Positions 39,225-54,646 are shown, numbered from the stretch's first letter. The stretch: 64,000 bases of DNA from an uncultured Chloroflexia bacterium (GCA_963760735.1 CAVXEB010000007.1:543930-607929); one strand, 5' to 3'. A program made the numbers and translations. The notes: a model not told the origin generated them from the letters alone.

Positions 39225-39874
39225 GCGGGCGGAACCCGGGCGACCACCCACAGGAACCGGGCGTCCTGGCGGTCCTCCGGTTCGGCGACCACGTCGGCGC
39301 GCTCGACGACGAAGCCGGCCTCCTCGAGGAGCCGGAGGCTCACCCGAGCCGAGAAGTGGCTGAAGTACATGTCCACGCCGAGCCAGTCCGCCTCGATCCC
39401 GCCCGGATCGTCCTCCACGCCGAGCGACGCGATGAACCGGCCGCCGGGTCGAAGCCAGTCACGGATCCGCCGCAACAGCGTGGCCTGCTCGTCGCGCGGG
39501 ACGTGGGTGAGGGAGTAGAAGGCGACGACGGCGTCCAGGCTGGCACTGGGCCACTCGAGAGTCGTCATGTCCGCCTGCCGGAAGGTGGCCTCCGGGACAT
39601 TGCGGCGGGCCCGTCGCACCTGCTCCCGCGAGATGTCGATCCCGGTCAGCCGCCGGCCCGCGGCGAGCCGGGCACTCATCGGCAACCCCGCGCCGCAGCC
39701 GAGCTCGAGGACGTCCGCCCCCGCGGGGATCAGCGCGTCGGCCAGGTCGAGCGCCGCGACCCGGGCCGCCGACGGCCGGAGCGCGCTCCACTCGAGGTAG
39801 CGATCGGCGATCGCGTCGTAGCCGGCGGCGACCACCGCCTTCGGGTCGACCGGGCCCGACACGTTCGCGGTCAC
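39221..39874 (-). CDS. Class I SAM-dependent methyltransferase
   Basis: VLELGCGAG, GIDIS, LRPGG. Confidence 0.9.
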   Translation of the reverse strand: MTANVSGPVDPKAVVAAGYDAIADRYLEWSALRPSAARVAALDLADALIPAGADVLELGCGAGLPMSARLAAGRRLTGIDISREQVRRARRNVPEATFRQADMTTLEWPSASLDAVVAFYSLTHVPRDEQATLLRRIRDWLRPGGRFIASLGVEDDPGGIEADWLGVDMYFSHFSARVSLRLLEEAGFVVERADVVAEPEDRQDARFLWVVARVPPA

Positions 39875-40323
39875 GACGCCCCCACCAGGATCTCGACCGG
39901 ATGGATCGTGCCGTCGACGATCCGGTACGCGCCGAGGGCCGGCTCGTCCGCGGCGAGCGACACGAGGAGATAGATCGCGTCCGGGTAGAACGCCAGCCCC
40001 ACGTCGGTCGGGCTGGGCGACGCGGGCGAACGGACGTGGCTGTGGACGATCGCCCAGAACACCTCGTCGGCGTCGTCGGTCGCGATCGTCAGCCGGAGCA
40101 GGTCGTCGGGGTGGATCTCGTAGCGGTACGGCGACGCGGCCTTGTTGCGGGTCGGCTCGAAGCGGAGCGCGGTGCCACCGGCGGCCGCCGGCCGGTCGCC
40201 CACGATCAGGCCGCAGGCCTCGTTGGGGTCCTCCGCCCGGGCATGGGCCACGATCGCCTCGACGAGCGCGACCGGCAGGTGGACGGACGGCGGCCCGGGA
40301 TGGGACACGAGGGGTGACGACAT
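39871..40323 (-). CDS. mec: JAB/Mov34 (M67) metallopeptidase, CysO-Cys peptidase-like
   Basis: NEACG, HSHVRSPASPSPTD JAMM motif; near cysO-cysM. Confidence 0.85.
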   Translation of the reverse strand: MSSPLVSHPGPPSVHLPVALVEAIVAHARAEDPNEACGLIVGDRPAAAGGTALRFEPTRNKAASPYRYEIHPDDLLRLTIATDDADEVFWAIVHSHVRSPASPSPTDVGLAFYPDAIYLLVSLAADEPALGAYRIVDGTIHPVEILVGAS

Positions 40324-40420
40324 CGTCAGCCCATCCTATCCCGGCGCGGCCGACCGCCCCGCCGAGGGTGGTTCGGGTGGATTGACCGCCGCCTTGGATC
40401 GACCGTACCGTTGCCCGACG

Positions 40421-41813
40421 ATGGGTGCCGATCCTGGTTCGACGGATCGTGGGGCGCGCACGGCGGCGGGCCGCCGTCTCGGGGCGCTGGCGTGCGTCGT
40501 CCAGCTGATCGTCGTCGGCTGCGGAAGTGCTCCCGTGCCACCGACCACGCGGCCGGCCGCGACCGACGTCCAGGTGGCCGTCGGCTCGCCGGTCGCGACA
40601 GCGACTCCGATCCAGACCGCCGAGTCGTCGGCCACGCCCGGCCCGTCGCCCACGAGTTCGATCGTGCCGCAACCCTCTCCCGTCGCCTCGACGCGACCGC
40701 CAGGATCGAGCGTGCCCGACCCGGACCCCGGCACCGACGCCCGCAGCGACGCCGCGCCCGACCCCGAGGGCCGCGTCCCCGACCTCGTTCTCGTGGAGCG
40801 TCCTCAGGATCGACCCGGACCCGGTGACGTTCAGCGGCACCGGCCATCCCGGGAAGCCGAACAGCGTCGCGTCGATCGCGGGAAACCTGATCGTCGGCGG
40901 CTACCGCGCGCCAGGTCCGAGCACGGGCACCGCGACCGGAGCCGTCTGGACGTCGTCGGATGGGCACTCATGGACGGTGACCGAGCTCACCGGAACGGGC
41001 GGCGTCGCGGTCGCGTCCGATGGATCCCACGCAGTCGCGCTGGGCGGCGACGATGGCTGGATCTCCACCGACGGCCGGACCTGGACGCCTGTCCCGTCGT
41101 CGCCGCCGTCGTTCGGCGGCAGCGTGATCGGCCTCCCTTCGGGTGGGTTCCTCGCGAGCGCGGACCGCGGCGCCGCGGACACACACTGTTCGGTCTGGTT
41201 CTCGCCGACCGGCGAGACGTGGAGCCGACGCTCGACAGGTCCGGTCGGCGGCACCTGCCCAACCGACCTCGCCGTGGGTCCCGACGGCGTTGTCGCCGTC
41301 GGCTCGACCTTCCCGACCAGCAACCATGGCTGGATCTCGTGGTCGGGCGATCTCGGCCGGTCGTGGCGGACGGTGGTCGCTTCGATCGGTCACCCGGTCA
41401 CGGTCGTCAGTGCCCTGAACGGCGGATTCCTCGCAGCGACGAGCTCCTTCGGCGCCGGGCAGGACCTCCACGGGGAGACGTGGCGATCAGCCGACGGACA
41501 GGCGTGGAGGATGGTCGGAACGATCCCGTTGCGACACAGCTATTCGTACACCGACCTGCACTCCATCGTCCGCTTCGGCACCGGGTATCTCGCGTTCGGC
41601 CACTCCGGGATCCCGGACTCGACCTTCGCCGAGGCGAGGTCCAGCCAAACGGGCTCGACCTGGAGCTCGACGCCCTGGGGCGTCGAGCGGGGCGACGTCG
41701 AGCTGCTCGATGGCGTCGTCTGGAAGAGCCGCGTCGTCGTCGTCGGCGAGTCCGACTCCGCCTCCGAGGGCGAGCTCAACAACGTCCTCGCGTTCATCGG
41801 CACTCCGAGGTAG
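40421..41813 (+). CDS. Lipoprotein with P/T/S linker and BNR-like repeats (frameshift near 40720)
   Basis: IVVGC lipobox; WTSSDG.SW, ISTDGRTW, SADGQAW repeats. Confidence 0.6.
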
Positions 41814-41861
41814 CGTCGGGCGGTCAGCACCGCCCAGGTTCGCCCAGCCTCGTCGGCAGAG

Positions 41862-42416
41862 CTACGTCAGCTCGTCGGCGAGGAGATCCATCAGCAGCCC
41901 GTCATGCCAGGACCCGTCGCGCCAGCGCTCGTACCGCCGCATCGCCCCAACGGGCCGGAAGCCGACCGCGGTGTAGGCCCGGACCGCTCGCTCGTTGGCG
42001 AGCGACGGATCGATCGTCAGCCGATGGTGGCCGCGGACGTCGATCAGCCAGCGCGCGACGGTCCGCACGGCGTCGCGGCCGAGGCCGCGCCCCTGCCCGG
42101 CATCGACGAGGGCGATGTCGATCCCGGCGTGGCGGTACTGCGGGTCCGTCTCCTCCGAGGCAATCACCAGCCCGATCCCGACTCCATCGGACTCGACGAT
42201 CCAGATGGCGAGCTCCTCGTCGGCGAGCAGCTCCGCGACGTCGGCCGGCGGATCGGGCGCCTGCCACCACGCGTCGACCGTGGGATCCGAGATGATCGCC
42301 GTCATCAGGGCCGCGTCAGCCGGGGTCGCCGGGCGCAGGTGGACCCGGTCATGGTCCAGTGGCTCGATCGCGTCGCGGATGGATGGCAGCCCGGCCGGTG
42401 ACCGGCTGTCGCTCAC
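41862..42416 (-). CDS. GNAT acetyltransferase, AAC(6')-like
   Basis: YRHAGIDI, QGRGLG, GHHRLTIDP..ANERAVRAY..VGF..VG.MRRYER; GTGA overlap with cysM. Confidence 0.8.
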   Translation of the reverse strand: MSDSRSPAGLPSIRDAIEPLDHDRVHLRPATPADAALMTAIISDPTVDAWWQAPDPPADVAELLADEELAIWIVESDGVGIGLVIASEETDPQYRHAGIDIALVDAGQGRGLGRDAVRTVARWLIDVRGHHRLTIDPSLANERAVRAYTAVGFRPVGAMRRYERWRDGSWHDGLLMDLLADELT

Positions 42417-43480
42417 CACCAGTTGACGCCGCCCTCGAGATCGTCGTGCATCTCGTCGAGGTCGCGGGTGAACGTGCCGGCGCTCAGGTACTTCCAGCCG
42501 CCGTCGGGCAGGAGCGCGACGATCGTGCCGCCGTCCATCAACTTCGCCTCCCGCGCGGCGGCCACGAGGACGGCACCGCACGACGGTCCCCCGAAGATCC
42601 CCTCGCGGTCGACGAGGTCCCGGAGCGCCGCGATCGCGTCGGCGTTGCTGATCAGGTACTTCGTGGCGAGGAGCGTCGGATCCAGGATCTCGGGGATGAA
42701 CCCTTCCTCGAGCGAGCGGAGGCCCTGGACGCCCTCGCCGGGCAGCGGCTCGGCCGCCACGATGCGGACGCCGGGCTTCGCGCGGGCGAGATAGCGGGCG
42801 ACGCCCATGAGCGTCCCGCTCGTCCCGAGACCGGCGACGAACACGTCGATCTCGGGGCAGTCGGCGAGGATCTCCGGGCCGGTCGTCTCCTCGTGGGCGC
42901 GTGGGTTGGCGTCGTTGCCGTATTGGTACGGCATCACGAACCGCGCGTCCTTCGAGACGAGGTGCTTGGCGAGGGCGATCGCCCCGTTCGAGCCGAGCTG
43001 CCCGGGCGAATCGATCACCTCCGCCCCGAACAGGGCGGCCATCTGGCGCCGCTCGTTCGTGACGTTGGCGGGCATCACGAGGGCCACCCGGTAGCCCTTC
43101 CGCCGGCCGATCATCGCGAGGGCGATGCCGGTGTTCCCGGACGTCGGCTCCAGGATGATCGAGTCCGGCCGAAGAAGGCCGCGCGTCTCGAGATCCTCGA
43201 TGAGGTACTTCGCAACGCGATCCTTGACCGAGCCCGTCGGGTTGGCCATCTCGAGCTTCGCGAAGATCCGGACGCTCGGGTTCGGCGACATCCGCGGGAT
43301 CTCGACGAGCGGCGTGTGCCCGATCGCGTCGAGGATGTCGTCATACCGACCGCCGTGCGGGGCCCCGGCCTCGTGCGCGCGGGCGTGGTCGCCCGCCGAG
43401 GTGTCGACGCCGGCCGGATCGTCCGACCCGCCGCTCCCGGTCCCGGGGGCGACGAGCGGCTTCGGCAGCGCCATCGTCAC
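42413..43480 (-). CDS. cysM: PLP cysteine synthase, CysO-thiocarboxylate-dependent type
   Basis: NPTGSVKDR, EPTSGNTG, GLGTSGT, PDGGWKYLS; adjacent to the sulfur carrier. Confidence 0.88.
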   Translation of the reverse strand: MTMALPKPLVAPGTGSGGSDDPAGVDTSAGDHARAHEAGAPHGGRYDDILDAIGHTPLVEIPRMSPNPSVRIFAKLEMANPTGSVKDRVAKYLIEDLETRGLLRPDSIILEPTSGNTGIALAMIGRRKGYRVALVMPANVTNERRQMAALFGAEVIDSPGQLGSNGAIALAKHLVSKDARFVMPYQYGNDANPRAHEETTGPEILADCPEIDVFVAGLGTSGTLMGVARYLARAKPGVRIVAAEPLPGEGVQGLRSLEEGFIPEILDPTLLATKYLISNADAIAALRDLVDREGIFGGPSCGAVLVAAAREAKLMDGGTIVALLPDGGWKYLSAGTFTRDLDEMHDDLEGGVNWW

Positions 43481-43749
43481 CCCCCGGCCATCGCCGGCAG
43501 GATCCGGACCTCGTCGCGATCGCCGACCGCCGTCTTGAGGCCGTCCAGGTAACGGACGTCCTGGCCGTTGACGTAGACGTTCACGAAGCGGTTCAGCTCG
43601 CCGCCGTCGGCGAGGAGCTGGCCGCGGAGCGCCGGGTACTGGTCCGCGAGCGCGGCGACCAGCTCGCCGACGGTCGACCCGCCGAGCTGGAGCTGCTTGT
43701 TGCCGCCGGCCTGGGCCCGGAGGACCTGCGGGATCCAGACGGTGCTCAC
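43477..43749 (-). CDS. cysO: Ubiquitin-like sulfur carrier (MoaD/ThiS/CysO)
   Basis: FVNVYVNGQDVRYLDGL...ILPAMAGG with C-terminal GG. Confidence 0.88.
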   Translation of the reverse strand: MSTVWIPQVLRAQAGGNKQLQLGGSTVGELVAALADQYPALRGQLLADGGELNRFVNVYVNGQDVRYLDGLKTAVGDRDEVRILPAMAGG

Positions 43750-44963
43750 GCCTGGCCCCCGAGGACGAACGGCTCGTCGATCGCGGCCGTGCCGGCGCCG
43801 GCGAGGGCCCCGAACACCGGGATCGGCAGCGGCCGGCCCTCGGCCCGGGCGGCGACCGCCTCGGTCGAGCAGACCGGGCAGGCCGGATCGCGGCGGAGCT
43901 TCAGCTCGGTGAAGGTGGAGTCCAGGGCATCGAACAGGAGCAGACGCCCGGCGAGGGTCTCGCCGATCCCGAGGAGGACCTTCAGCGCCTCGTTGGCCTG
44001 GAGCATGCCCATGATCCCGGGCACGACGCCGAGGACGCCGGCCACGGAGCAGCCCGGTGCGAGCTCGGGCGGCGGCGGGGTCGGGTAGAGGCAGCGATAG
44101 CACGGTCCCTCGAACGGGATGAACGTCGTCAGCTGACCCTCGAACCGGAACACGCTGGCGTGGATCACCGTGATGCCCTTCGCGACCGCGGCGTCGTTCA
44201 GGAGGTACCGCGTCTCGAACGTGTCGGTCCCGTCGATGATCACGTCGTAGCCAGTGATGATCCGGTCGACGTTGTCGGCGACGAGCATCTCCTCGTACGT
44301 CACGACGTTCACGTCGGGGTTCAGGGCCGTGATCGTCTTGCGGGCCAATTCGACCTTCCGCTCCCCCACCCGCTCGTTCGTGTGGAGGATCTGGCGCTGG
44401 AGGTTCGACAGGTCGACGACGTCGAAGTCGACGATGCCGATCGTGCCGACGCCCGCGGCGGCCAGGTACAGGGCCGCCGGGGAGCCGAGACCGCCGGCGC
44501 CGATGAACAGCGCCTTGCTGTCGAGCAGCCGCGCCTGGCCCTCCGGTCCGACCTCGGGGATCAGAAGGTGGCGGCTGTAGCGCTGCTTCTGCTCCTGGCT
44601 GAGGGAGACCGGCTTGTCCCAGGGCAGGCCGGCGGACTTCCATGCCTGGAACCCGCCCGACATCGAGGCGACGTTCGTGTAGCCGAGCTGCTCGAGCGTC
44701 TGAGCGGCGAACAGCGATCGGACACCGCCGGCGCAGTACAGGACGACCGGCGCGTCGCGGTCGCCGACGGCGCCCTCGATCTGCTGCTCGACGTAGCTCT
44801 TGCTGATGTGGAGGGCATTGGGCAGGTGGCCCTGGTCCCACTCCGAGTCCTCGCGGACGTCGATCACGGTCGTGCCCTGGGGCAGGGCGTCGACCTCCCC
44901 GGGTGTGACCTCCCGGATCTGGGAGCGGGCCTCCCGGAGGAGGTCGGCGTAGGTTCGTGGCAT
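43746..44963 (-). CDS. moeB: Rhodanese-MoeB/ThiF adenylyltransferase fusion (MoeZ-like)
   Basis: DVRE..EW...YCAGGVRS rhodanese; RYSRH, GAGGLG, SNLQRQ, PCYRC, CPVC. Confidence 0.92.
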   Translation of the reverse strand: MPRTYADLLREARSQIREVTPGEVDALPQGTTVIDVREDSEWDQGHLPNALHISKSYVEQQIEGAVGDRDAPVVLYCAGGVRSLFAAQTLEQLGYTNVASMSGGFQAWKSAGLPWDKPVSLSQEQKQRYSRHLLIPEVGPEGQARLLDSKALFIGAGGLGSPAALYLAAAGVGTIGIVDFDVVDLSNLQRQILHTNERVGERKVELARKTITALNPDVNVVTYEEMLVADNVDRIITGYDVIIDGTDTFETRYLLNDAAVAKGITVIHASVFRFEGQLTTFIPFEGPCYRCLYPTPPPPELAPGCSVAGVLGVVPGIMGMLQANEALKVLLGIGETLAGRLLLFDALDSTFTELKLRRDPACPVCSTEAVAARAEGRPLPIPVFGALAGAGTAAIDEPFVLGGQA

Positions 44964-45105
44964 GGGCGGGGTGGCTCCGGTGACGACGGGCTGCCGGCTG
45001 GTCGCGCGGCAGGGCGGTTCGACGATGTGGCTGTGGCGTGGGCGCTCGGCCCGCCGGCTCAGGCCGGCCCGAGACACCTGCAGCGGCCCGGCAGGGGTTG
45101 TCGCG

Positions 45106-45504
45106 TCACGCCGTCGCGCCTTCCGGCGGCTTCGCGCCGCCGGTCTCGGCCAGCGCCTTCTGGAGGGTCTCGTGACTGAGCATCGCGCACTTCAGGCGCG
45201 CCGGGCTGATGTCGATCCCGAGCAGGTCGAGGAGGTCGTCCGCGCGGAACGCCTCGACCTCGGTCACGGGCTTGCCCTTGATCTCGTCGGTCAGCAGGGA
45301 TGCCGACGCCTGGCTGATCGCGCAGCCGCGGCCGGTGAAGCCGACCCGCTCGACGACGCCGTCGCGGACGCCGATCTGGAGCGTGATCCGGTCGCCGCAC
45401 AGGGGGTTGCTCCCCTCGAAGGTCGCGGTCGGATCCTCGATCACCCCGAAGTTGTGGGGCCGTCGATAGTGCTCGAGGATGTAGTCGCGGTAGAGGTCGT
45501 CCAT
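45106..45504 (-). CDS. sufU: SufU/NifU-type sulfur-transfer scaffold
   Basis: YILEHY, NPLCGD, GCAISQAS, RLKCA. Confidence 0.92.
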   Translation of the reverse strand: MDDLYRDYILEHYRRPHNFGVIEDPTATFEGSNPLCGDRITLQIGVRDGVVERVGFTGRGCAISQASASLLTDEIKGKPVTEVEAFRADDLLDLLGIDISPARLKCAMLSHETLQKALAETGGAKPPEGATA

Positions 45505-45534: not shown

Positions 45535-45565
45535 ATCAATCCCGAGGAATTTGATCGGGATTGAT
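45535..45565. promoter_or_regulatory. Palindromic operator upstream of sufU (Rrf2-type candidate)
   Basis: ATCAATCCCGA-N9-TCGGGATTGAT overlapping a minus-strand TAGCAT -10. Confidence 0.8.
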
Positions 45566-45689
45566 GCTATGGCCGAGTCCGGGCGGCGTCAATCGTGCGT
45601 GCCGACAGGTCGCTGTCGTGGGGTCCACGCCCCCGCGGAAGAGGGACCGGCCCCTTGCACCAACCGTTGTCCGGGCGCGTAGACTCCGC

Positions 45690-45873
45690 CACGTCACGGT
45701 CTGACCATCTCCAGCCTTTCGAGCCCGCAGTTGGGGACGCGGCGCGGACGCTCGTCATCGAAAGGAGCGAGTTCATCAACGACTCGCGGTCACACCTGGG
45801 AGGAAGCCGCAACCGGTCTCCGGAGATCGGTCGCGGATCAGGGAACGCAGAGCCCATCTCGGAGGAACGACAC
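45690..45873 (+). promoter_or_regulatory. Long structured 5' leader of the ABC importer operon
   Basis: TTGCAC/TAGACT promoter upstream; several stems; GGAGG at 45861. Confidence 0.45.
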
Positions 45874-47081
45874 GTGCCAAGGTTGAGTTCACGGATCGCC
45901 GCGACATTCGGTGTCACGGCCATCCTCGTCGCCGCGTGCAGCACCGGCGCCACCCCCTCGCCCAGCTCCGCCGCGCCGAGCGCCGCCGCCCCGAGCGCCG
46001 CGGCGCCCAGCACCGCGGCCTCGGGCGGCGCCAGCCAGGCCGCCGCCGGCGACCCGAAGACGGCGAAGACCGCGGCCGAGGCGGGCGGCGTCGACGCCGT
46101 CTGCGCCGCCGGCAAGACCGAGGGTCAGGTCAACATCATCGCGACCCCGCCGGACTGGGCGAACTACGGCCAGATCATCACCGACTTCTCGGCCAAGTAC
46201 GGGATCAAGGTCCAGTCGGACAAGCCCGACGGGAACGGCCAGGATGAGATCAACGCGGCCACGCAGCTCGCCGGAACCGGGCGCCAGCCCGACATCTTCG
46301 ACATCGGGTCGTCGTCGTCGCCGCCCACACCGACATGTTCACCCCGTACCAGGTGGCCACCTGGGCGGACATCCCTGACGGGAACAAGGAGCCGACCGGA
46401 CTCTGGAACAACAACTACACCGGCTTCGTGTCGATCGGATACGACACCAAGCTCGGCGACATCGCGAAGGTCAGGGATCTCGCCGATGCAAAGTACAAGG
46501 GCAAGGTCGCCCTGAATGGCGACCCGCTCAAGGCGTCCGCCGGCTTCAACGGCGTCGTCATGGCCGCCCTCGCCAACGGCGGCTCGGCCGACAATATCGC
46601 CGCCGGTGTCGACTTCTTCAAGAAGCTCGCCGACAGCGGGCAACCTCATGCCGGTCGACCCGAACCCGGCCACGATCGCATCCGGCCAGACCCCGATCGT
46701 GATCGACTGGACCTACAACAACGGCGCCCAGACGGCGGTTCTCGCGCCGAAGGGCATCACCTGGAAGACCGTGATCCCGAGCGACGCGGCACCGGTCGCC
46801 TCGTTCTACAACGACGCGATCAACAAGGACGCGGCACATCCCGCGGCCGCCCGCTGCTGGATGGAATACATCTTCTCCGACGCCGGCCAGAACACCTGGC
46901 TGAAGGGCTTCGCCCTGCCGATCCGACTCGCCGCCGATGCAGAAGGCCGGAACCGTCGACGAGACGGCGCTTGCCGCGCTCAATCCCGCCGACGACCCCG
47001 CCGGTCCAGCTGACGCAGGCGCAGATCGATGCGGCAACGAAGTACCTCACCGACAACTGGAAGTTCATCGCCATCAAGTAG
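45874..47081 (+). CDS. ABC substrate-binding lipoprotein, PotD/Fe/thiamine-like class (frameshifted)
   Basis: LVAAC lipobox, PDWANYG, YKGKVALNGDP, HPAAARCW. Confidence 0.82.
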
Positions 47082-47113
47082 CAGACGCAGGACGATCGAC
47101 CGGAGTCGCCCGC

Positions 47114-48050
47114 GTGACCGATCGTCGGTCAGCGCGCCCACGCCGCCCACGGCACAGACAGCCGGCCTCACCTCCGGCAGGGCCGGCTCACGCCGCTTCC
47201 GGAAGGCGGGGAACTACCTCGCCCTCGTCCCCTTCCTCGGCTACGTCGGGATCTTCCTGATCCTTCCGACGCTTGTCGTGGCCGTCGGTGCGTTCACGAC
47301 GGCGAGCGGCCAGTTCACCCTCGACAACGTGTCGCGGCTGTTCGCCGACGAGGTGTTCGTCAACGCGTTCGTTCGCTCGATCCAGCTCGCCGTCGCGACC
47401 GCGATCGCCGGGGCGATCCTCGGCGCAGTGCTCGCCTGGGCGGTCGTCCGCGGCGATCCGAACGGCGTCTTACGCCAGCTGGTGATCGCCGCGTCGGGCG
47501 TCCTCGCCCAGTTCGGCGGCGTGATGCTCGCGTTCGCGTTCCTGGCGACGTTCGGGTTCAACGGCCTCGCGACGCTGTTCTTCCGAGACATCCTCCACGT
47601 CGACCTCCTCACCGACGCGTCGTGGCTGTACAGCCTCGCGGGCCTCGTCGTCGTCTACACCTACTTCCAGATCCCACTCATGCTGATCGTCTTCCTCCCG
47701 TCGCTCGATGGGCTCCGCCAGGAGTGGTACGACGCGTCCGCGAGCCTCGGCGGCTCGCTCGTGGTCGTTCTGGAGGAACGTCGGCGGACCGATCCTGGCC
47801 CCGGCGTTCCTGGGCTCGCTGCTGCTGCTGTTCACGAACGCGTTCTCCGCATACGCGACGGCTGCCGCCCTCATCAGCCAGGGAAGCCCGATCATCACCC
47901 TGCAGATCGCCGACGCCATGCAGAGCGAGGTCGTCCTCGGCCAGGAGAACGTCGGCAAGGCGCTGGCGCTCGGGATGATCGTCGTGGTCGTCGCTGGTGA
48001 TGCTGGTGTACGCCTTCATCCAGCGGCGCGCCTCGAGGTGGGTCCAATGA
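47114..48050 (+). CDS. ABC permease (frameshifted)
   Basis: FGGVMLAFAF, YFQIPLM, EWYDASASLG, AFSAYATA. Confidence 0.82.
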
Positions 48051-48941
48051 CCGCGTCGCCCGGCGGCCCGCTCTCGGCCGCCGCGCCGCATGGCGGCGCC
48101 CTCGTCCGCCCCCAAGGGACGCGGGTCGGCCGGCGCGGCTCCCGCCGTCAGCTCGGTGTCCGGATCGCGATCCTGGTCCTCGTCTTCGGCTACCTGGTCC
48201 TGCCGCTGTTCGCGATGCTCGAGTTCTCGACCCGCGGCAACTACGGCAGTCGGACGCTGAATTCGTACGCCGCGATCTTCAGCAACCAGGACCTGATCGA
48301 CGCAGTCACCACGTCGCTCGAGATCGCGGTGCTGACCGTCTTCGGCATGCTGCTCCTGCTCGTCCCGACGATGGTCTGGACGGTCGTCCGGGTCCCGCGG
48401 CATGCGCCGCGTCGTCGAGTTCCTGTGCCTCCTGCCGCTCGCGATCCCCGCGATCGTCATCGTCGTCGGCATCGCCCCGATCTACCGCTGGATGGGCCAG
48501 CATCTCGGCGCGGTCGGCGCATCACCGCTGACGCTCGCCCTCATCGACATCATCCTCGTGCTGCCGTTCGCCTACCGGGCGATCGATGCGAGCCTCCGGT
48601 CGATCGACACGGCGACGCTCTCTGACGCCGCGCGCAGCCTCGGCGCCGGCTGGCCGCGGACGATCCTCCAGGTGATCGTCCCGAACATCCGCGGCGGGAT
48701 CCTGTCGGCATCCGTCCTCGCGGTCGCGCTGGTCCTCGGCGAATACACGATCTCGTCGCTGCTGTCCTTCAACACGCTCCAGGTCGTCATCTACCTGCTC
48801 GGCAAGCGCGATCCGTTCATCTCGGTCGCGGTCGCCTTCGCCGCGCTGCTGTTCGCGTTCGTCCTGCTGTTCGTCATCACCCGCGTCGGAGCCGGCGGCG
48901 ACCGCCGTGCCCAGGTCGAGAGCGAGGAGCCCGCCACATGA
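48047..48941 (+). CDS. ABC permease (frameshifted)
   Basis: LPFAYRAID, DAARSLGA, LGEYTI. Confidence 0.82.
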
Positions 48942-50010
48942 CCGCCGCGAGCGCAATCCCGATCGAGACCGGGCATGGCGTCGCCGTCGAGTTCGACGAG
49001 CTGCATCGCTGGTACGGCTCCGTGCATGCGCTCGACGGGCTGACGATCAACATCGCGCCCGGGCGAGCTGATCGCCCTGCTCGGGCCGTCGGGCTGCGGC
49101 AAGACCACCGCGCTCCGCGCCCTCGGCGGGCTCGACGAAGTCGACCAGGGCCGGATCCTCGTCGGCGGGAAGGAGATCACCAACGTCCCCGCGAACAAGC
49201 GGAACATGGGTGTCGTCTTCCAGGCCTACAGCCTCTTCCCCAACATGACGGCCCGCGACAACGTCGCCTACGGCCTGCGACTCCGCGGGATCAGCGGCGC
49301 GACCCGCAAGAAGAAGGCCGAGGACATGCTCGAGCTGGTCGGCCTCGGCCAGCAGGCGAGCCGCTACCCGCACCAGATGTCGGGCGGCCAGCAGCAGCGG
49401 GTCGCGCTCGCGCGCGCGCTCGCGATCGAGCCGAGCGTGCTGCTCCTCGACGAGCCGCTGTCGGCGCTCGATGCGAAGGTCCGGCGCCAGCTGCGCGAGG
49501 AGATCCGGCGCATCCAGATCATGATCGGGATCACGACCCTGTTCGTGACCCACGACCAGGAGGAGGCCCTCGCGATGGGCGACCGGGTCGGGGTGATGTC
49601 CGCCGGGCGTCTCGAGCAGATCGCCGCGCCGGCCGAGCTCTACGACCGGCCGAAGACGCGCTTCGTCGCGGAGTTCGTCGGATTGACCAACCGGATCCCG
49701 GGGACGGCCGCCAGCGGCGGCGTCGAGCTGCTCGGGACCCGCGTGCCGCTGCTCGAGGGCTCGGCGACGTCCGGTCCGGGTCCAGGCCCTCGTCCGGCCG
49801 GAGGCGATCCGCATCGTCCCGGACGAGGCGGGCGACGCCCACGTCGTCGCCGTCAGCTTCCTCGGTTCGGTCTGCCGGGCCCAGGTGGCCCTCAAGGACG
49901 GCACGATCGTCTTCGGTCAGCTGTCCGCGGCCGAGGCGGAGGGCCTCGCCCAGGGCACCGCCGTCCGGGTGAGCGTCGTGCCGTCACCGGTGTTCGCGGT
50001 CGCCGACTAG
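48938..50010 (+). CDS. ABC ATPase, PotA-like (frameshifted)
   Basis: GPSGCGKT, MSGGQQQR, LLDEPLSALD, THDQEEA. Confidence 0.88.
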
Positions 50011-50028
50011 CCCGCGGGAAGCCTGCGG

Positions 50029-51395
50029 GTGACCCGGATCCGCGAGCCGGCCCGGTCGGTCGACGTCATTCACGAGACCGACGTCCTCGTCGTCGGGAGC
50101 GGTCCCGGCGGCCTGTCCGCGGCGCTCGCCGCGGCCCGCGCCGGCGCCACGACGACGCTCCTCGATCGCTACGGCTGCTTCGGCGGGAACATGACCCAGG
50201 TCGGCGTCGAGAGCATCGGCTGGTACCGCCACGAGCAGACCGTCGAGGCCGACGGCATCGGCCGCGAGCTGGAGGAGCGGGCGGCGGCGATGGGCGCGGC
50301 GAACCCCGAGAGCCAGTCGTTGAGCATGGGCATCGACGGCGAGCGGTTCAAGTTCGTCGCCGACGTCCTCGTCGGCCGAGGCGGGCATCACGCCGATGCT
50401 CCATCGCCTCGCCGTCGCAGCCGATCGTCGAGGACGGGGCGATCCGCGGCGTCATCACGGAGAGCAAGTCGGGCCGGGAGGCGATGCTCGCGAAGCGGGT
50501 CGTCGACGCGACGGGCGACGCCGACATGGCCGCCCGGGCCGGCGCGCCGGTCCGCAAGACGCCGCGCGAGGAGATGCTCGCCGCGTCGGTGATGTTCTCG
50601 ATGACCGGGGTGAACAAGGGCAGGTTCCTCGACGAGGTCAAGGCCGATCCGCAGACCTACCGTGACTGGGCCGGCAACGCCGAGTGGGACATCGAGACGA
50701 CCGGCAAGGAGGACGAGCTCTTCTCGCCGTTCCTCCGCAAGCCGTTCAAGAAGGCCGTCGAGGAGGGGTTGATCCCGCCCGGCCTGATCACGCTCGCCGG
50801 CACGTGGGGCACCGTGACCGACCAGGGCGACCTGACCTACCTCAACCTCGTCCACCTCGCGGAGGTCGACGGAACGAGCGCCGACGACCTGACCCGTGGC
50901 GAGATCGAGGGCCGCCAGCAGGCGATGCAGGCGATCAAGGCGCTCCGGGCGTTCATGCCGGGCTGCGAGGATGCGAAGCTCCGCAACTTCGGGATGACGA
51001 TCGGGATCCGCGACACGCGGAAGATCGAGGCCCTGTACGACCTGACCGGCGAGGACGTCCGCGAGCAGGGACGGTTCGAGGACTCGATCGGCATCTTTCC
51101 GGAGTTCATCGACGGCTACGGGATCCTGATCCTGCCGACCACCGGGCGCTACTACCAGGTGCCCTACCGGTCGCTCGTTCCGAAGGAGATCGGCAACCTC
51201 ATCGTCGCCGGTCGCTCGATCGGCGGCGACCAGGTCTCGCATGCGTCGACCCGGAACATGATGTGCTGCACGGTCAGCGGCCAGGGCGCCGGCGTCGCCG
51301 CGGCGCTCTCGATCCGGACCGATCGGCCGTTCGATCGCCTCGAGATCGGGCCGGTCCAGGCCGAGCTGCGCCGGCAGGGCGTCCGGCTCGACTGA
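50029..51395 (+). CDS. FAD-dependent oxidoreductase (frameshift near 50380-50420)
   Basis: VVGSGPGG, VDATGDAD, YQVPYRSLVP, AGRSI, GQGAGVAAA. Confidence 0.85.
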
Positions 51396-51419
51396 ACCCC
51401 GGAAATGGCCTCGAGGGCC

Positions 51420-53042
51420 TCAGTCGCCGAAGAGCTTCTGGACCTCGAGCAGGCCGTCGGCGAGGCGATCGATGTCGTCGCGGGTCGTGTAGACGCTGAA
51501 GCTTGCCCGGGCGGTGGCCGCGAGATCGAGCCGCTCGTGGAGGGGCATCGTGCAATGGTGCCCGGCGCGGACCGCGATCCCGAACCGATCGAGGACCTGG
51601 GCGACGTCGTGCGGGTGGATGCCCGGCAGGTTGAACGGGACGACGCCGCCGCGCTTGTCCGGGTCGAGCGGGCCGTACAGCTCGATCGCCGGGATCCGGG
51701 CCGGCAGCGTCTCGAGCGCGTACGCGACGAGCGCTCGTTCGTGCTCGCGCACCGCGTCCATCCCGATCTGCATCAGGTACTCCGCCGCCACGCCGAGCCC
51801 GATCGCGTCGCCGACGGCCGGGGTCCCGGCCTCGAACTTCCACGGGATGTCATTCCAGTCCGAGCGACGGAGATGGACCTCGCGGATCATCTCCCCGCCG
51901 GCGAGGAACGGCGGCATCGCCTCGAGCAGCTCGCGCCGGGCCCACAGGGCGCCGGAGCCCATCGGGGCCAGCATCTTGTGACCGCTGAACGCGTAGAAGT
52001 CGGCACCGAGCTCCTGGACGTCGACCGGAACGTGCGGGACGGCCTGGGCCCCGTCGACGAGGACGAGGGCGCCGGCGGCGTGGGCCATCTCGACCATCTC
52101 GCGGACCGGGTTGATCGTGCCGAGCGTGTTCGAGACGTGGGTGAACGCGACGAGCTTCGGGCGGAGCTTCAGCAGGACCTCGAACACGTCGAGGCGGAGG
52201 AGCCCGTCGTCGGTGATCGGGATGAACTCCAGGTCGCCGTCCCGCTCCTGGACGAGAAGCTGCCACGGGACGAGGTTGGCGTGGTGCTCCATCTCGGTCA
52301 GGACGATGGCGTCGCCGCGCGAGATGTTCGTCCGGCCCCACGAGTAGGCGACCAGGTTGATCGCCTCCGTCGCGTTGCGGGTGAAGATCACCTCGTGGGC
52401 GTCCGGCGCGTTGATGAACCGGGCGACCCTCGCTCGGGCTCGCTCGTACTCGGCCGTCGACTTCTCGCCGATCGTGTAGATCCCGCGGTGGACGTTCGCG
52501 TTGTACTCGCGGTAGTAGGTGTCGATCGCGTCGATCACGACCTGCGGCTTCTGGCTCGATGACGCGGAGTCCAGGTAGATGAGCGGGTGGCCGTTGATCT
52601 CCTGGGCGAGGATCGGGAAGTCGCGCCGGAGCGCGACCGGATCCAGCCGGGTGGCGTCGGCGCGCGGGACATCGAAGGTGACCGTCAGATCGGTCAGATC
52701 CTCCCCTCGATGGCCGAGCCGGATCGTCCCGGTCGTCCCGGTGTCGTGCCAGGCGAAGCGAGCGACGATCGTCTGGTCGTCCGGCTCGGTGGTCGACAAC
52801 ACGTCGATCGTGTCGTCGGGCGGATGGTCGCGGTAGGCCTGGGCGATGGCGTCGCGACCGTGGAATGGCCCGAACGGCAGGCTCACGAACGTCGCGGTTG
52901 CGTCCTCGGTGAAGTGGCCGACCATGTCACCGAAGTCGCCCGATCGGACGCCCGCGTTGAAGCGTTCGATGTGCGCGGCGAACAGCGGCGCGATGGGCGC
53001 CGCGGAAGGTGCTGCCGCCTTGGCCTCCGTCTCGATCGCCAT
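51420..53042 (-). CDS. sufS: Cysteine desulfurase SufS with N-terminal SnoaL/NTF2-like domain
   Basis: YLDSASS, NVHRG, EHHAN, SGHKM, RAGHHC; about 130-aa N-terminal FTEDA...GRDAI domain. Confidence 0.9.
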   Translation of the reverse strand: MAIETEAKAAAPSAAPIAPLFAAHIERFNAGVRSGDFGDMVGHFTEDATATFVSLPFGPFHGRDAIAQAYRDHPPDDTIDVLSTTEPDDQTIVARFAWHDTGTTGTIRLGHRGEDLTDLTVTFDVPRADATRLDPVALRRDFPILAQEINGHPLIYLDSASSSQKPQVVIDAIDTYYREYNANVHRGIYTIGEKSTAEYERARARVARFINAPDAHEVIFTRNATEAINLVAYSWGRTNISRGDAIVLTEMEHHANLVPWQLLVQERDGDLEFIPITDDGLLRLDVFEVLLKLRPKLVAFTHVSNTLGTINPVREMVEMAHAAGALVLVDGAQAVPHVPVDVQELGADFYAFSGHKMLAPMGSGALWARRELLEAMPPFLAGGEMIREVHLRRSDWNDIPWKFEAGTPAVGDAIGLGVAAEYLMQIGMDAVREHERALVAYALETLPARIPAIELYGPLDPDKRGGVVPFNLPGIHPHDVAQVLDRFGIAVRAGHHCTMPLHERLDLAATARASFSVYTTRDDIDRLADGLLEVQKLFGD

Positions 53043-53058
53043 CGTGATCGCGCCCGCC

Positions 53059-53982
53059 CTAGCGGGCGACCGCCGCCGGCTCGTGCTCGCCGGTCGTCGT
53101 GGCGTCGGCGTCGTCGCCGGCCGGACCCCGCGGGACGAGCAACGCCTCGTCGGAGACCGTCGTCTCGAGACCAGCCTCGCGGAGGATCGGGCCGTAGCCC
53201 TCGTCCTCGAGCCGCAGGGCGAGGTCCTTGCCGCCGCTCTTGACGATCCGGCCCTGGGCGAGCACGTGGACGACGTCGGGGGTGATGTAGTTCAGCAGCC
53301 GCTGGTAGTGGGTGATCAGCAGCACGCCGAGCTCCGGGTTGAGCATCGCGTTGACGCCCTCGGCGACGATCCGCAGCGCGTCGATGTCGAGGCCCGAATC
53401 GGTCTCGTCGAGGATCGCGATCTGCGGCTCGAGGACCGCCATCTGGAGCATCTCGAGGCGCTTCTTCTCGCCGCCGCTGAAGCCCTCGTTCACATAACGG
53501 GTCGCGATCGCCTCGTCCATCCCGAGGAGGGCCATCTTCTCGCGCATCTTCGTCCGGAAGTCACGCATCGAGACGCCACCCTTCATCGGGTCGGTCGGGT
53601 CGACGTCGCTGGTCTTGTCCATCCCCTGGAGCTTCGCGTTGAGGGCGCTCCGGATGAACGACGCGACGCTGAGGCCGGGGATGGCGGTCGGGTACTGGAA
53701 GGCGAGGAACATCCCGAGGCGGGCCCGCTTGTCCGGGCTCAGCTTCAGGACGTCGCGTCCCTGCCAGGTGACCTTGCCACCGGTCACGACGTAGGCCGGG
53801 TGGCCCATCAGGGCGTAGGCGAGGGTCGTCTTGCCGGAGCCGTTCGGGCCCATGATCGCGTGGACCTCGCCCTTGCCGACGTCGAGGTCGATCCCCTGGA
53901 GGATCTCGGTCTTCGGGCTGGCGACGGGCGCGACGCGGAGGCCGCGGATGACGAGGCGGTCGGTCTGGTCGGTGTCGGTCAC
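53059..53982 (-). CDS. sufC: Fe-S assembly ATPase SufC
   Basis: GPNGSGKT, FQYP, GFSGGEKKR, DETDSGLDID, THYQRLL. Confidence 0.95.
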   Translation of the reverse strand: MTDTDQTDRLVIRGLRVAPVASPKTEILQGIDLDVGKGEVHAIMGPNGSGKTTLAYALMGHPAYVVTGGKVTWQGRDVLKLSPDKRARLGMFLAFQYPTAIPGLSVASFIRSALNAKLQGMDKTSDVDPTDPMKGGVSMRDFRTKMREKMALLGMDEAIATRYVNEGFSGGEKKRLEMLQMAVLEPQIAILDETDSGLDIDALRIVAEGVNAMLNPELGVLLITHYQRLLNYITPDVVHVLAQGRIVKSGGKDLALRLEDEGYGPILREAGLETTVSDEALLVPRGPAGDDADATTTGEHEPAAVAR

Positions 53983-54494
53983 GAGGTGATCAGTGCTCCC
54001 TGGAGGTCGTCGACGGCGACCGGGCGCGACGGCACCAGGTCGGCGAGGGTCATGGATTCGAGCGCCCCGGTGATCGCGTCGCGGACGCGGACCCAGAGGA
54101 CGTTGACGGTGCACCGGGAGCTGCGATCGCAGACGAGCGCGTGCTCCGGATCCTCGGTCGCGCAGAGCATCGGCGCGATCGGGCCCTCGAGGGCGCGAAC
54201 GACGTCGCTCATCCGGATGTCGGCCGGCGGCCGCGTCAGCTCGTAGCCGCCGTGGGCGCCGCGGGTGCTGGCGACGAGGCCCGCGTCGCGGAGGCTCATC
54301 ACGAGCTGCTCCAGGTACGCCCGCGGCAGGTCCTCGTCGGCCGCCATCTCGGCGAGGCTCGCCGGTCCGGTCCCGTACCGCCGTCCCAGCTGGACCATCA
54401 GCCGCACGCCGTACTCGCCCTTCGTGCTGAAGGCGACGGCGCCCGAGCCGTGGAAGGTCGGGCGGGTCGTGGAGGTCGAGAGCTGCTGAGCCAG
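53979..54494 (-). CDS. Rrf2 family regulator (IscR/CymR-like, 3 Cys)
   Basis: FSTKGEYG, YLEQL, RGAHGGY, C-x10-C-x5-C; start uncertain (CTG at 54494). Confidence 0.88.
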   Translation of the reverse strand: MAQQLSTSTTRPTFHGSGAVAFSTKGEYGVRLMVQLGRRYGTGPASLAEMAADEDLPRAYLEQLVMSLRDAGLVASTRGAHGGYELTRPPADIRMSDVVRALEGPIAPMLCATEDPEHALVCDRSSRCTVNVLWVRVRDAITGALESMTLADLVPSRPVAVDDLQGALITS

Positions 54495-54527
54495 GGGAGG
54501 GTCCTCGTGGTCCTCGGGTCGACGGTC

Positions 54528-54552
54528 AATCCCGAGTGATTTCGTCGGGATT
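54528..54552. promoter_or_regulatory. Palindromic operator upstream of rrf2
   Basis: AATCCCGA-N9-TCGGGATT abutting a minus-strand TACACT -10. Confidence 0.8.
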
Positions 54553-54646
54553 AGTGTAGGCGGGCCGCCTGACGGAGCGCAACGAGGCGGTCCCCGCGCC
54601 GGCCTCCCACGTCCCGCGACCGAGGCTCGCCCACGCTGGATGCGAA

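Follow-up and report, generated by a model that had tools for sequence, protein, structure and literature searches.

Arrangement of the SUF and cysteine genes

A stretch of 64,000 nucleotides from an uncultured Chloroflexia bacterium (GCA_963760735.1, CAVXEB010000007.1:543930-607929), hereafter the window, carries genes for SUF iron-sulfur (Fe-S) cluster assembly in two groups. Ahead of each group stands the same palindrome, here called the Rrf2 box, and the gene next to the first copy encodes a regulator of the Rrf2 type. A third copy was found before the remaining SUF genes on another contig of the assembly (G000). This assembly comprises 7 contigs with 3,838,665 bases, is 92.3% complete and has a G+C content of 70.6%. 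Because open frames alone are weak evidence at such a G+C content, genes were called by means of family models. The suf and cysteine genes of the window all lie on the minus strand.

The first group begins with rrf2 (53979-54494; 171 amino acids, aa), the stop codon of which is overlapped by the GTG start codon of sufC (GTGA). The sufC gene (53059-53982; 307 aa; TIGR01978, 313 bits against a cut-off of 212.8) is the single copy found in G000. The SufC model ends well short of the C-terminus and is followed by an acidic tail of several dozen residues (53059-53220, minus strand). The sufS frame (51420-53042; 540 aa) begins 16 nt past sufC and encodes a SnoaL-like domain fused to SufS (TIGR01979, 551.7 bits, cut-off 475.1; Aminotran_5, 483 bits). 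The SnoaL_2 domain (SnoaL/NTF2-like; 52640-53042, minus strand) occupies residues 25-108 in one frame with SufS; the same fusion was seen in the relatives' loci L085, L087, L096 and L142 and is absent from most relatives.

The second group is headed by sufU (45106-45504; 132 aa; TIGR01994, 113.6 bits, cut-off 92.5), the sole NifU_N-type gene in G000. It is followed by a gene for a rhodanese-ThiF protein, an E1-like adenylyltransferase/sulfurtransferase (43746-45077) with 542 bits to NF006444, the PRK08762 MoeB model (cut-off 449); translation may in fact begin at the ATG at 44963. The original prediction had listed this gene as moeZ. Its gene names proved right in function, and the E1 is predicted to do the job of MoeZ, but this particular name does not hold in the strict sense: the rhodanese domain lies at the N-terminus, the reverse of the MoeZ domain order, and the MoeZ model was missed (349 bits against 647). 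The GTG start codon of a cysO-like gene (43477-43749; 90 aa) overlaps the E1 stop codon. Its product is a sulfur carrier of the MoaD/ThiS type with a C-terminal Gly-Gly, and its best solved relative is the CysO chain of M. tuberculosis (3dwg_C, 73.7 bits). Two nucleotides after the cysO stop codon comes the ATG of a cysM-like O-phosphoserine sulfhydrylase gene (42413-43474; 353 aa). This protein narrowly misses the TIGR01136 cysKM cut-off (320.1 against 344.15), and its best solved relative is 3dki_A (M. tuberculosis; cysteine synthase B/O-phosphoserine sulfhydrylase) with 318.6 bits, whereas the best CysK reaches 228.5. Finally, a mec-like gene for a JAB/JAMM peptidase (39871-40323; Prok-JAB domain) lies 2.1 kb past cysM; in relatives the JAB peptidase gene stands behind cysM at a distance of between a few and a few hundred nt. 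Between the two in the window (40324-42412) there are two minus-strand frames, 40901-41323 and 41540-41830, with no Pfam or NCBIfam match. The genes thus comprise the set for CysO-dependent cysteine synthesis, namely a synthase of the CysM type, a Gly-Gly carrier, an E1 with rhodanese and a JAMM peptidase, and the predicted substrate of the CysM-like enzyme is O-phosphoserine.

The missing SUF genes are on contig C2, where sufB starts at C2:381726 (minus strand), with sufD and then a frame of 164 aa behind it; SUFBD_core was matched twice on this contig (296 and 188 bits). The SUF set is therewith complete in G000 (SufB, SufD, SufC, SufS and SufU), and this sufC, this sufU and this sufBD pair were the only ones found.

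Three copies of the Rrf2 box

The palindrome AATCCCGA-N9-TCGGGATT occurs at 54528-54552 and at 45538-45562 with 0 mismatches in each case, exactly as the original prediction had it. Box 1 (AATCCCGAGTGATTTCGTCGGGATT; 54528-54552, no strand assigned) lies over the predicted +1 of the rrf2 promoter and is the putative autoregulatory operator. Box 2 (AATCCCGAGGAATTTGATCGGGATT; 45538-45562, no strand assigned), the putative operator of the sufU operon, ends 33 nt before the sufU ATG. The same prediction had expected a genome-wide scan to find the motif at sufBD, and a third site, AATTCCGA-N9-TCGGAATT, was indeed found at C2:381785-381809, 59 nt ahead of the sufB ATG. As there is a single set of sufC, sufU and sufBD genes, every SUF unit found has one of the three boxes ahead of it.

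The boxes are rare elsewhere. A scan of the window allowing up to 3 mismatches gave 2 matches in total; shuffled sequences gave a mean of 0.33, and two matches were reached in 4 of 100 shuffles. When G000 was scanned for sites with A/T flanks at up to 2 mismatches, only the window pair and the C2 site were obtained. The same scan also gave one GATC-flanked site, which lies within a coding frame, and a control in which the pattern was read backwards gave 0 matches in G000 against 18 forward. The consensus of the family, WWWYCCGA-N9-TCGGRWWW, matched exactly 3 sites in G000 with up to 1 mismatch and 0 sites in the reversed genome. With a weight matrix the three boxes scored 39.8-45.8 bits and the next-best site in G000 scored 15.9 bits; the matrix was built from sites selected by the pattern and is partly circular, thus only the size of the score gap counts. 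No convincing fourth box was found in G000 by the weight matrix, by the consensus at up to 2 mismatches or by coding context, the weaker matches being without the palindromic core or within coding frames. In the weight-matrix and consensus scans of G000, no other cysteine or sulfate gene had a box, and nor had any nitric oxide (NO)-detoxifying or redox gene. The three sites are real and specific and look functional; that they are operators can be regarded as practically certain.

Conservation of the boxes in relatives

The 80 best loci encoding this Rrf2 are nearly all labelled as metagenome-assembled genomes of Candidatus Limnocylindrales, Chloroflexota or Chloroflexia, a few being labelled otherwise (for example Verrucomicrobiia, Methylomirabilota and Saccharimonadales), and the host lineage is Candidatus Limnocylindrales, a soil lineage of the Chloroflexota and not of the actinobacteria.

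All 23 same-genus loci, the window's own genome among them, have the box before rrf2 without a mismatch. Of another 80 loci from the family, 79 have a box there, the sole exception having just 49 nt of upstream sequence. Altogether 102 of 103 rrf2 loci have the box ahead of the gene. Before sufU the box was exact in all 13 same-genus loci, and it was found in 41 of the 44 loci in which the end of sufS and the start of sufU could both be located, although at least 3 of these 44 are the same contig counted twice. Before sufB, all 26 same-genus loci counted have a box that matches AATYCCGA-N9-TCGGRATT; L074 (its genome being flagged as unpublished) and L081 (which is without upstream sequence) were left out of the count. 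In a sister family, 11 loci were scanned at rrf2; 9 of them have the box ahead of the gene in a degenerate form, AWMTCYGAC-N7-GTCRGAWWT, and the other 2 yielded no output. Before sufB the sister family has the box, with one mismatch, in 1 of 2 loci. Leaders and flanks diverge freely among genomes that keep the boxes.

Within the family the half-site pairs before rrf2 were AATCCCGA/TCGGGATT (n = 34), ATATCCGA/TCGGATAT (n = 25), a hybrid of the two (n = 12) and minor forms (n = 8), and only CCGA-N9-TCGG and the A/T-rich nature of the flanks are fixed across the family. Boxes of the form ATATCCGA-N9-TCGGATAT or the hybrid form were seen before rrf2 in other genera (L101, L116, L133 and others). 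Locus L101 holds both flank types, the ATAT type before rrf2 and the AATC type before sufU. The possibility that the flank type tracks residues of the Rrf2 protein was rejected, since the proteins of the 34 loci with AATCCCGA and the 25 loci with ATATCCGA differ in one D/E column that is outside the recognition helix. Given this single column and the mixed types in L101, the flanks of the box appear simply to be degenerate.

Predicted promoters at the boxes

The original prediction had placed a minus-strand -10 hexamer beside each palindrome in the window, and both were found again, TACACT at 54558-54553 and TAGCAT at 45569-45564. In the putative rrf2 promoter the -10 hexamer (54553-54558, minus strand) directly abuts box 1 and is preceded by the -35 hexamer TTGCGC (54577-54582, minus strand), which is TTGACG in most relatives. 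The 23 same-genus rrf2 loci share a conserved TCGTTGACGC, 18 nt, then TACACT, TAGACT or TACAAT (23 of 23) and then the box, which begins right behind the -10 hexamer or three bases within it, depending on the relative. In the putative sufU promoter the -35 hexamer TTGACG (45587-45592, minus strand; TTGACG in 12 of 13 loci) is followed by the -10 hexamer (45564-45569, minus strand), 1 nt from box 2, and relatives have TTGACG, a spacer of 17 nt, TAGCAT or TAGATT, and then the box after a single base. A scan of 15.5 kb for a sigma-70-like consensus gave the sufU promoter as its single match, with 0.6 expected by chance. At sufB the layout is TTGACG, 17 nt, GATAAT, and here the -10 hexamer is within the spacer of the box.

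Conserved promoters of the type TTGACG-17/18-TAnnnT are thus overlapped or abutted by the boxes. All three are predicted from conservation, and a dimer bound over the -10 hexamer or the start site at each of them would have the layout of a repressor. Divergent genes were considered as the targets of two of the boxes. The sufU box might have served a gene for a solute-binding protein that starts about 275 nt away, and the sufB box a DUF1269/DUF4332 gene that starts about 400 nt away; both were ruled out by distance and by the fact that the boxes are kept with other neighbours. In the loci L035 (10440-10540), L036 (12905-13005) and L038 (8170-8275), all positions being approximate, a short open reading frame (ORF) with a hydrophobic product was seen to separate the sufU box from its gene; the window has no such frame.

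Class of the box

The likeness to IscR-type boxes seen in the original prediction stands up to a base-by-base comparison. The type-1 consensus of E. coli IscR, as given in a passage of PMC3899308, is ATASYYGACTRWWWYAGTCRRSTAT. The boxes have the same length of 25 bp and share with it a core of SYYGA-N9-TCRRS. The rrf2 box fits the consensus at 19 of 25 positions and the sufU box at 17 of 25, values identical to those of published P. aeruginosa sites, which fit at 17/25 and 19/25 (68% and 76%) according to the same passage (PMC3899308). Compared with P. aeruginosa iscR site A, the sufU box agrees in 21 of 25 bases. A 25-bp type-1 box overlapping the promoter of the regulator's own operon is what is expected for the IscR class. 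As described in parts of PMC3899308 and PMC5411485, only IscR that carries its cluster binds type-1 sites, and this is the main reason why the holo-form is expected to be the repressor here.

The Rrf2 regulator

The protein encoded by rrf2 scores above the cut-offs for PF02082 (116.2 bits, cut-off 30) and TIGR00738 (118.6 bits, cut-off 73.3), which places it in the Rrf2 superfamily. Its best solved relative is PDB 4cic (145 bits, E 1e-41), which we take to be the apo-IscR of Thermincola potens, the entry title giving only 'BadM/Rrf2 family'. CymR chains come second to fourth (116-127 bits), followed by E. coli IscR (67-71), RsrR (52) and NsrR (39).

The frame has no ATG, GTG or TTG ahead of the conserved N-terminus, and the ORF as listed begins inside helix 1. 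In 101 of the 102 loci with the gene and the box, an in-frame CTG lies 4-10 nt behind a GAGG-type Shine-Dalgarno (SD) sequence. In the window the SD sequence is GAGGA at 54506-54502 and the CTG lies 7 nt on at 54494-54492 (together 54492-54506, minus strand). A canonical in-frame start between the box and the Rrf2 domain was found in just 20 of the 102 loci. The CTG opens a 19-aa N-terminal extension (54438-54494, minus strand) ending in the conserved FHGSGAV, and among relatives this end, R-P-x-(F/Y)-H-G-S-G-A-V, is maintained through synonymous changes. The sister family keeps L-H-G-(S/T)-G-A-V, and at the position corresponding to the CTG it uses ATG, TTG or GTG. Given the conservation of the SD sequence and the CTG, the kept peptide and the starts of the sister family, the start of rrf2 was placed at the CTG, from which the protein of 171 aa would be translated.

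The three cysteines noticed originally are Cys111, Cys122 and Cys128 (canonical C92, C103 and C109), arranged as C-x10-C-x5-C, and they are invariant in 9 sequences from two families; three conserved Cys ligands are expected for the IscR class. Glu27 and Arg31 (canonical Glu8 and Arg12) are invariant in the same 9 sequences. In S. coelicolor NsrR (ScNsrR), according to part of PMC5411485, three Cys from one subunit and Asp8 from the other bind the [4Fe-4S] cluster, with Asp8 salt-bridged to Arg12. The Glu8/Arg12 pair of the window Rrf2 would fit this Asp8/Arg12 scheme, the equivalence being one of numbering in a collinear alignment and not of structure. Candidates for a fourth cluster ligand are Glu8 and the His within the FHGSGAV peptide.

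The separation of sufS and sufU

The stop codon of sufS (51420) and the start of sufU (45504) are 5.9 kb apart. As stated in the original prediction, an ABC importer/oxidoreductase block of roughly 5.8 kb on the opposite strand parts the two genes. It runs on the plus strand from about 45840 to 51395 and consists, by family models, of genes for a solute-binding protein, a two-domain permease, a PhnT2-like ABC ATPase (268 bits with an incomplete query) and an FAD-dependent oxidoreductase (FAD_oxidored). The same block stands behind sufS in several other genera, and as far as can be seen it would be outside the regulon.

The original prediction had further taken the operator to be duplicated and the block to be an insertion that synteny would reveal. 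The two boxes are there, and a contiguous form does exist: the sister family, whose genomes measure about 1.1 Mb, has an unbroken cluster rrf2-sufC-sufS-sufU-E1-JAB in which 26 nt, without a box, part sufS from sufU. However, the second box is not a consequence of the split. In the window's own family the sufS-sufU gap varies from 47 nt to 12.2 kb, with alternative fillings of 1.4-12 kb among which the block in the window is one of many, and the sufU box is already present at gaps of 69, 71 and 82 nt (L155, L120 and L142, respectively). The internal sufU operator therefore predates the insertions. The likely order of events, as suggested by these arrangements, would be a contiguous cluster, then the internal box before sufU and then repeated insertions of varied DNA.

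The block shows at least 9 frame changes, spread over all four genes, when compared with intact homologues in L104, L119, L129 and L146, and no frame break was seen in the suf and cys genes flanking it. In four public runs, contigs from related strains showed 1-base indels at or near seven of these places (46313, 46634-46641, 46929/46934, 46988, 48397, 49778 and 50027); these contigs are mostly 90-95% alike to the window and so come from other strains (best share of words 0.19). The frame changes reflect either gene decay or a local assembly error.

Proposed mechanism and alternative explanations

The above results suggest that a single Rrf2 controls both Fe-S assembly and CysO-dependent cysteine synthesis, as was originally proposed; the sites, their conservation as footprints, the promoters, the class of the motif, the cysteines and the relatives of CysM and CysO all point the same way. 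The adjacent Rrf2 very probably binds the boxes, and it is reasonably likely that binding needs an Fe-S cluster and represses. We put the probability of the whole, namely that Rrf2 is an IscR-like Fe-S sensor switching three SUF units including cysteine synthesis, at roughly 0.6; the binding by Rrf2, the cluster, the sign of the regulation and the signal are what we infer from sequence.

Rrf2 proteins act as dimers. Here each subunit would carry one Fe-S cluster held by Cys111, Cys122 and Cys128, with Glu27 of the partner subunit, salt-bridged to Arg31, as the likely fourth ligand in the manner of NsrR. When clusters are plentiful the holo-dimer would sit on its own promoter (rrf2-sufC-sufS), on the promoter of sufU-E1-cysO-cysM, the effect probably reaching mec, and on the sufB-sufD promoter of the other contig, and at all three promoters it would exclude or block RNA polymerase. 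With rising Fe-S demand, or once the cluster is lost to iron, sulfur or redox stress, the apo-protein would leave the boxes. Derepression would then provide the whole SUF machinery together with a thiocarboxylate-dependent pathway (CysO/CysM) that yields cysteine, on which SufS acts.

Several observations weigh against this Fe-S-sensing reading. The protein falls well short of the IscR equivalog models (TIGR02010, 89.1 bits against 207.55; PRK10857, 71.4 against 275). Its cysteines are spaced C-x10-C-x5-C, a spacing different from that of E. coli IscR, and the protein lacks the IscR-class His three residues past the third Cys, the sequence there being TVNVLW; in E. coli IscR this residue is His107, the fourth ligand. 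The sufB box fits the type-1 consensus at just 13 of 25 positions. The AATC and ATAT flanks do not co-vary with residues of the recognition helix, so this independent support for binding is missing. Since G000 is 92.3% complete, there may be more sites beyond the three, and mec, though probably in the same operon as cysM, would have to be reached across the 2.1-kb gap. Against it stand also the existence of other candidate regulators and the rank of CymR among the named models, which are taken up below.

The invariant Glu8-Arg12, mirroring Asp8-Arg12 of ScNsrR, could instead belong to a sensor of the NsrR/RsrR type, with a [4Fe-4S] or a redox-active [2Fe-2S] cluster, that answers to NO or redox state and controls SUF and CysO/CysM as repair functions. 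A portion of PMC8280819 ties the CysO route of M. tuberculosis to oxidative stress, which would suit such a role. We consider this unlikely, the solved NsrR and RsrR structures being the weakest matches (39-52 bits) and the box being absent from NO-detoxifying and redox genes in the scans. It also overlaps largely with the Fe-S-sensing reading, because oxidants also lower holo-IscR.

About as improbable is that the same Rrf2 is a CymR-like sensor of sulfur and cysteine, set by the cysteine supply through a complex with CysM or through thiol modification, the regulon then being one of sulfur supply that includes SUF. CymR, which works without a cluster, is the best-scoring named model (NF047409, 129.1 bits against 89.1 for IscR), and this counts against the Fe-S-sensing reading; the CymR-like one is also favoured by the second to fourth place of CymR chains among the solved relatives; one of the target operons makes cysteine, and B. 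subtilis CymR binds DNA when complexed with O-acetylserine thiol-lyase, as stated in a passage of PMC9338935. On the other hand, the score is below the CymR equivalog cut-off of 195, and the solved CymR chains are without the Cys-bearing segment in the alignments, whereas the three Cys are invariant here. Of the three target operons, two contain SUF functions alone, and the G000 scans gave no box at any other cysteine or sulfate gene.

A further explanation is that some other factor binds the palindrome and that the adjacent Rrf2 regulates something else. G000 has two other candidate Fe-S-type regulators. One is a second 3-Cys Rrf2 with an ordinary ATG start (C4:76405-76839); the other is a SufR-like protein of full length that has a Cys motif at its C-terminus and is encoded away from the suf genes (C1:39631-40341, minus strand; TIGR02702, 91.4 bits, below the cut-off of 178.8). 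Either could act on the suf promoters too and so provide an additional layer of control. The second Rrf2 has, 21 nt before its ATG, a palindrome of its own that differs from the box, AATCCCCAC-N7-GTAGGAATT (C4:76405-76889), and is probably a separate autoregulated regulator. The suf-adjacent regulator is an Rrf2 and not of the SufR class, which has an ArsR/DeoR-type helix-turn-helix, and the boxes have the length and core of sites for Rrf2 proteins (IscR type-1) and not of ArsR-type SufR sites. Recalling also that the box precedes rrf2 in 102 of 103 loci, neither of the two other proteins matches the box as well as the adjacent Rrf2, and a different binder is most improbable.

That the palindrome, which could fold in RNA, is a hairpin, a terminator or a chance repeat can practically be dismissed, as its half-sites are 9 nt apart with variable spacers between invariant arms, it lies at -10/+1 in two promoters and encloses the -10 hexamer at sufB so that it is not fully transcribed there, and it is kept perfectly while its flanks drift, in 3 genomic copies that are all before SUF genes.

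Novelty and significance

Repression of Fe-S biogenesis by an Fe-S-sensing Rrf2 is an established principle, and in this respect the result is tidy and not surprising. Modestly new would be the predicted control of CysO/CysM cysteine synthesis by an Rrf2 box. No literature was found that joins Rrf2, CysO, cysteine and regulon. To judge from titles and the beginnings of abstracts, the papers on Rrf2, suf and Chloroflexi contain none on regulation, and those on CysO and IscR contain none connecting the two; 'Limnocylindr' occurred in none among the matches listed. Specialists might find notable the three-way split with one box for each part, the CTG start with its conserved extension, and an NsrR-like Glu/Arg pair in combination with an IscR-type box.

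The analysis offers a complete testable regulon, with one regulator, one box and three promoters, for an uncultured and abundant soil lineage without genetics. It would add a case to the suf-adjacent Rrf2 groups whose Fe-S binding awaits experimental validation, as the relevant part of PMC9973013 describes them. It also suggests that some bacteria induce the CysO/CysM route to cysteine along with the machinery that consumes cysteine. A bolder and quite tentative view is that the proteins form a distinct Limnocylindria subclass of Rrf2, marked by an NsrR-like Glu8/Arg12 fourth ligand and a CTG-started (F/L)HG(S/T)GAV extension, which ties Fe-S assembly to the trafficking of thiocarboxylate sulfur through a physical relay from SufS/SufU to the E1 and on to the CysO-type carrier. 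If true, the order sufS-sufU-rhodanese/E1-JAMM in two families would reflect this relay, beyond a co-regulated supply of cysteine.

Comparison with known systems

S. coelicolor NsrR resembles the window Rrf2 in its three Cys and its position-8 carboxylate salt-bridged to Arg12 (according to part of PMC5411485), but it is a distant relative at 39 bits and the targets here are SUF genes and not NO-detoxifying ones. CymR of B. subtilis and S. aureus (2y75 and 3t8r), a regulator of cysteine metabolism, provides the best named model and the second-best solved relatives; in contrast to the protein described here it has no Cys-bearing segment and acts with CysK, and its cut-off was missed.

In M. tuberculosis, mec, cysO and cysM form a pathway of cysteine synthesis. 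The nearest CysM and CysO chains are from this pathway, and the Gly-Gly carrier, the JAB peptidase and the rhodanese E1 accompany them in both cases. It differs in its regulator, AosR according to a portion of PMC8280819, where an Rrf2 box is found here, and in that the operon here is headed by sufU and includes its own E1 with an N-terminal rhodanese. Since the host belongs to the Chloroflexota, a comparison with the SufR-controlled suf operons of actinobacteria is not directly applicable.

RisR of M. xanthus is, in its description in part of PMC9973013, an Rrf2 that heads suf genes and in its holo-form represses Fe-S biogenesis operons. Its three Cys (C92/C102/C108) have a spacing close to that of the window Rrf2; it belongs, however, to the distant Rrf2 group IS6 and controls isc as well as suf (PMC9973013), and the likeness is one to its description in that part of the paper.

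IscR of E. coli and P. aeruginosa shares with the present system the Rrf2 fold, the three Cys, the position as autoregulated first gene of an Fe-S operon and the 25-bp box at the promoter. It differs in that the protein here is below the equivalog cut-off, has the x10/x5 Cys spacing and comes from a Chloroflexota host, and in that control here would be of SUF only, because no ISC system was seen (there is a single U-type gene); nor are type-2 sites known for the regulator described here. IscR of T. potens is an Rrf2 from a bacterium of the monoderm type and is linked to suf. As 4cic it is the top solved relative, and both proteins have a DDPEH stretch between the first two Cys positions; unlike it, the system described here has three suf units with three boxes, a cysteine operon, an N-terminal extension and a CTG start.

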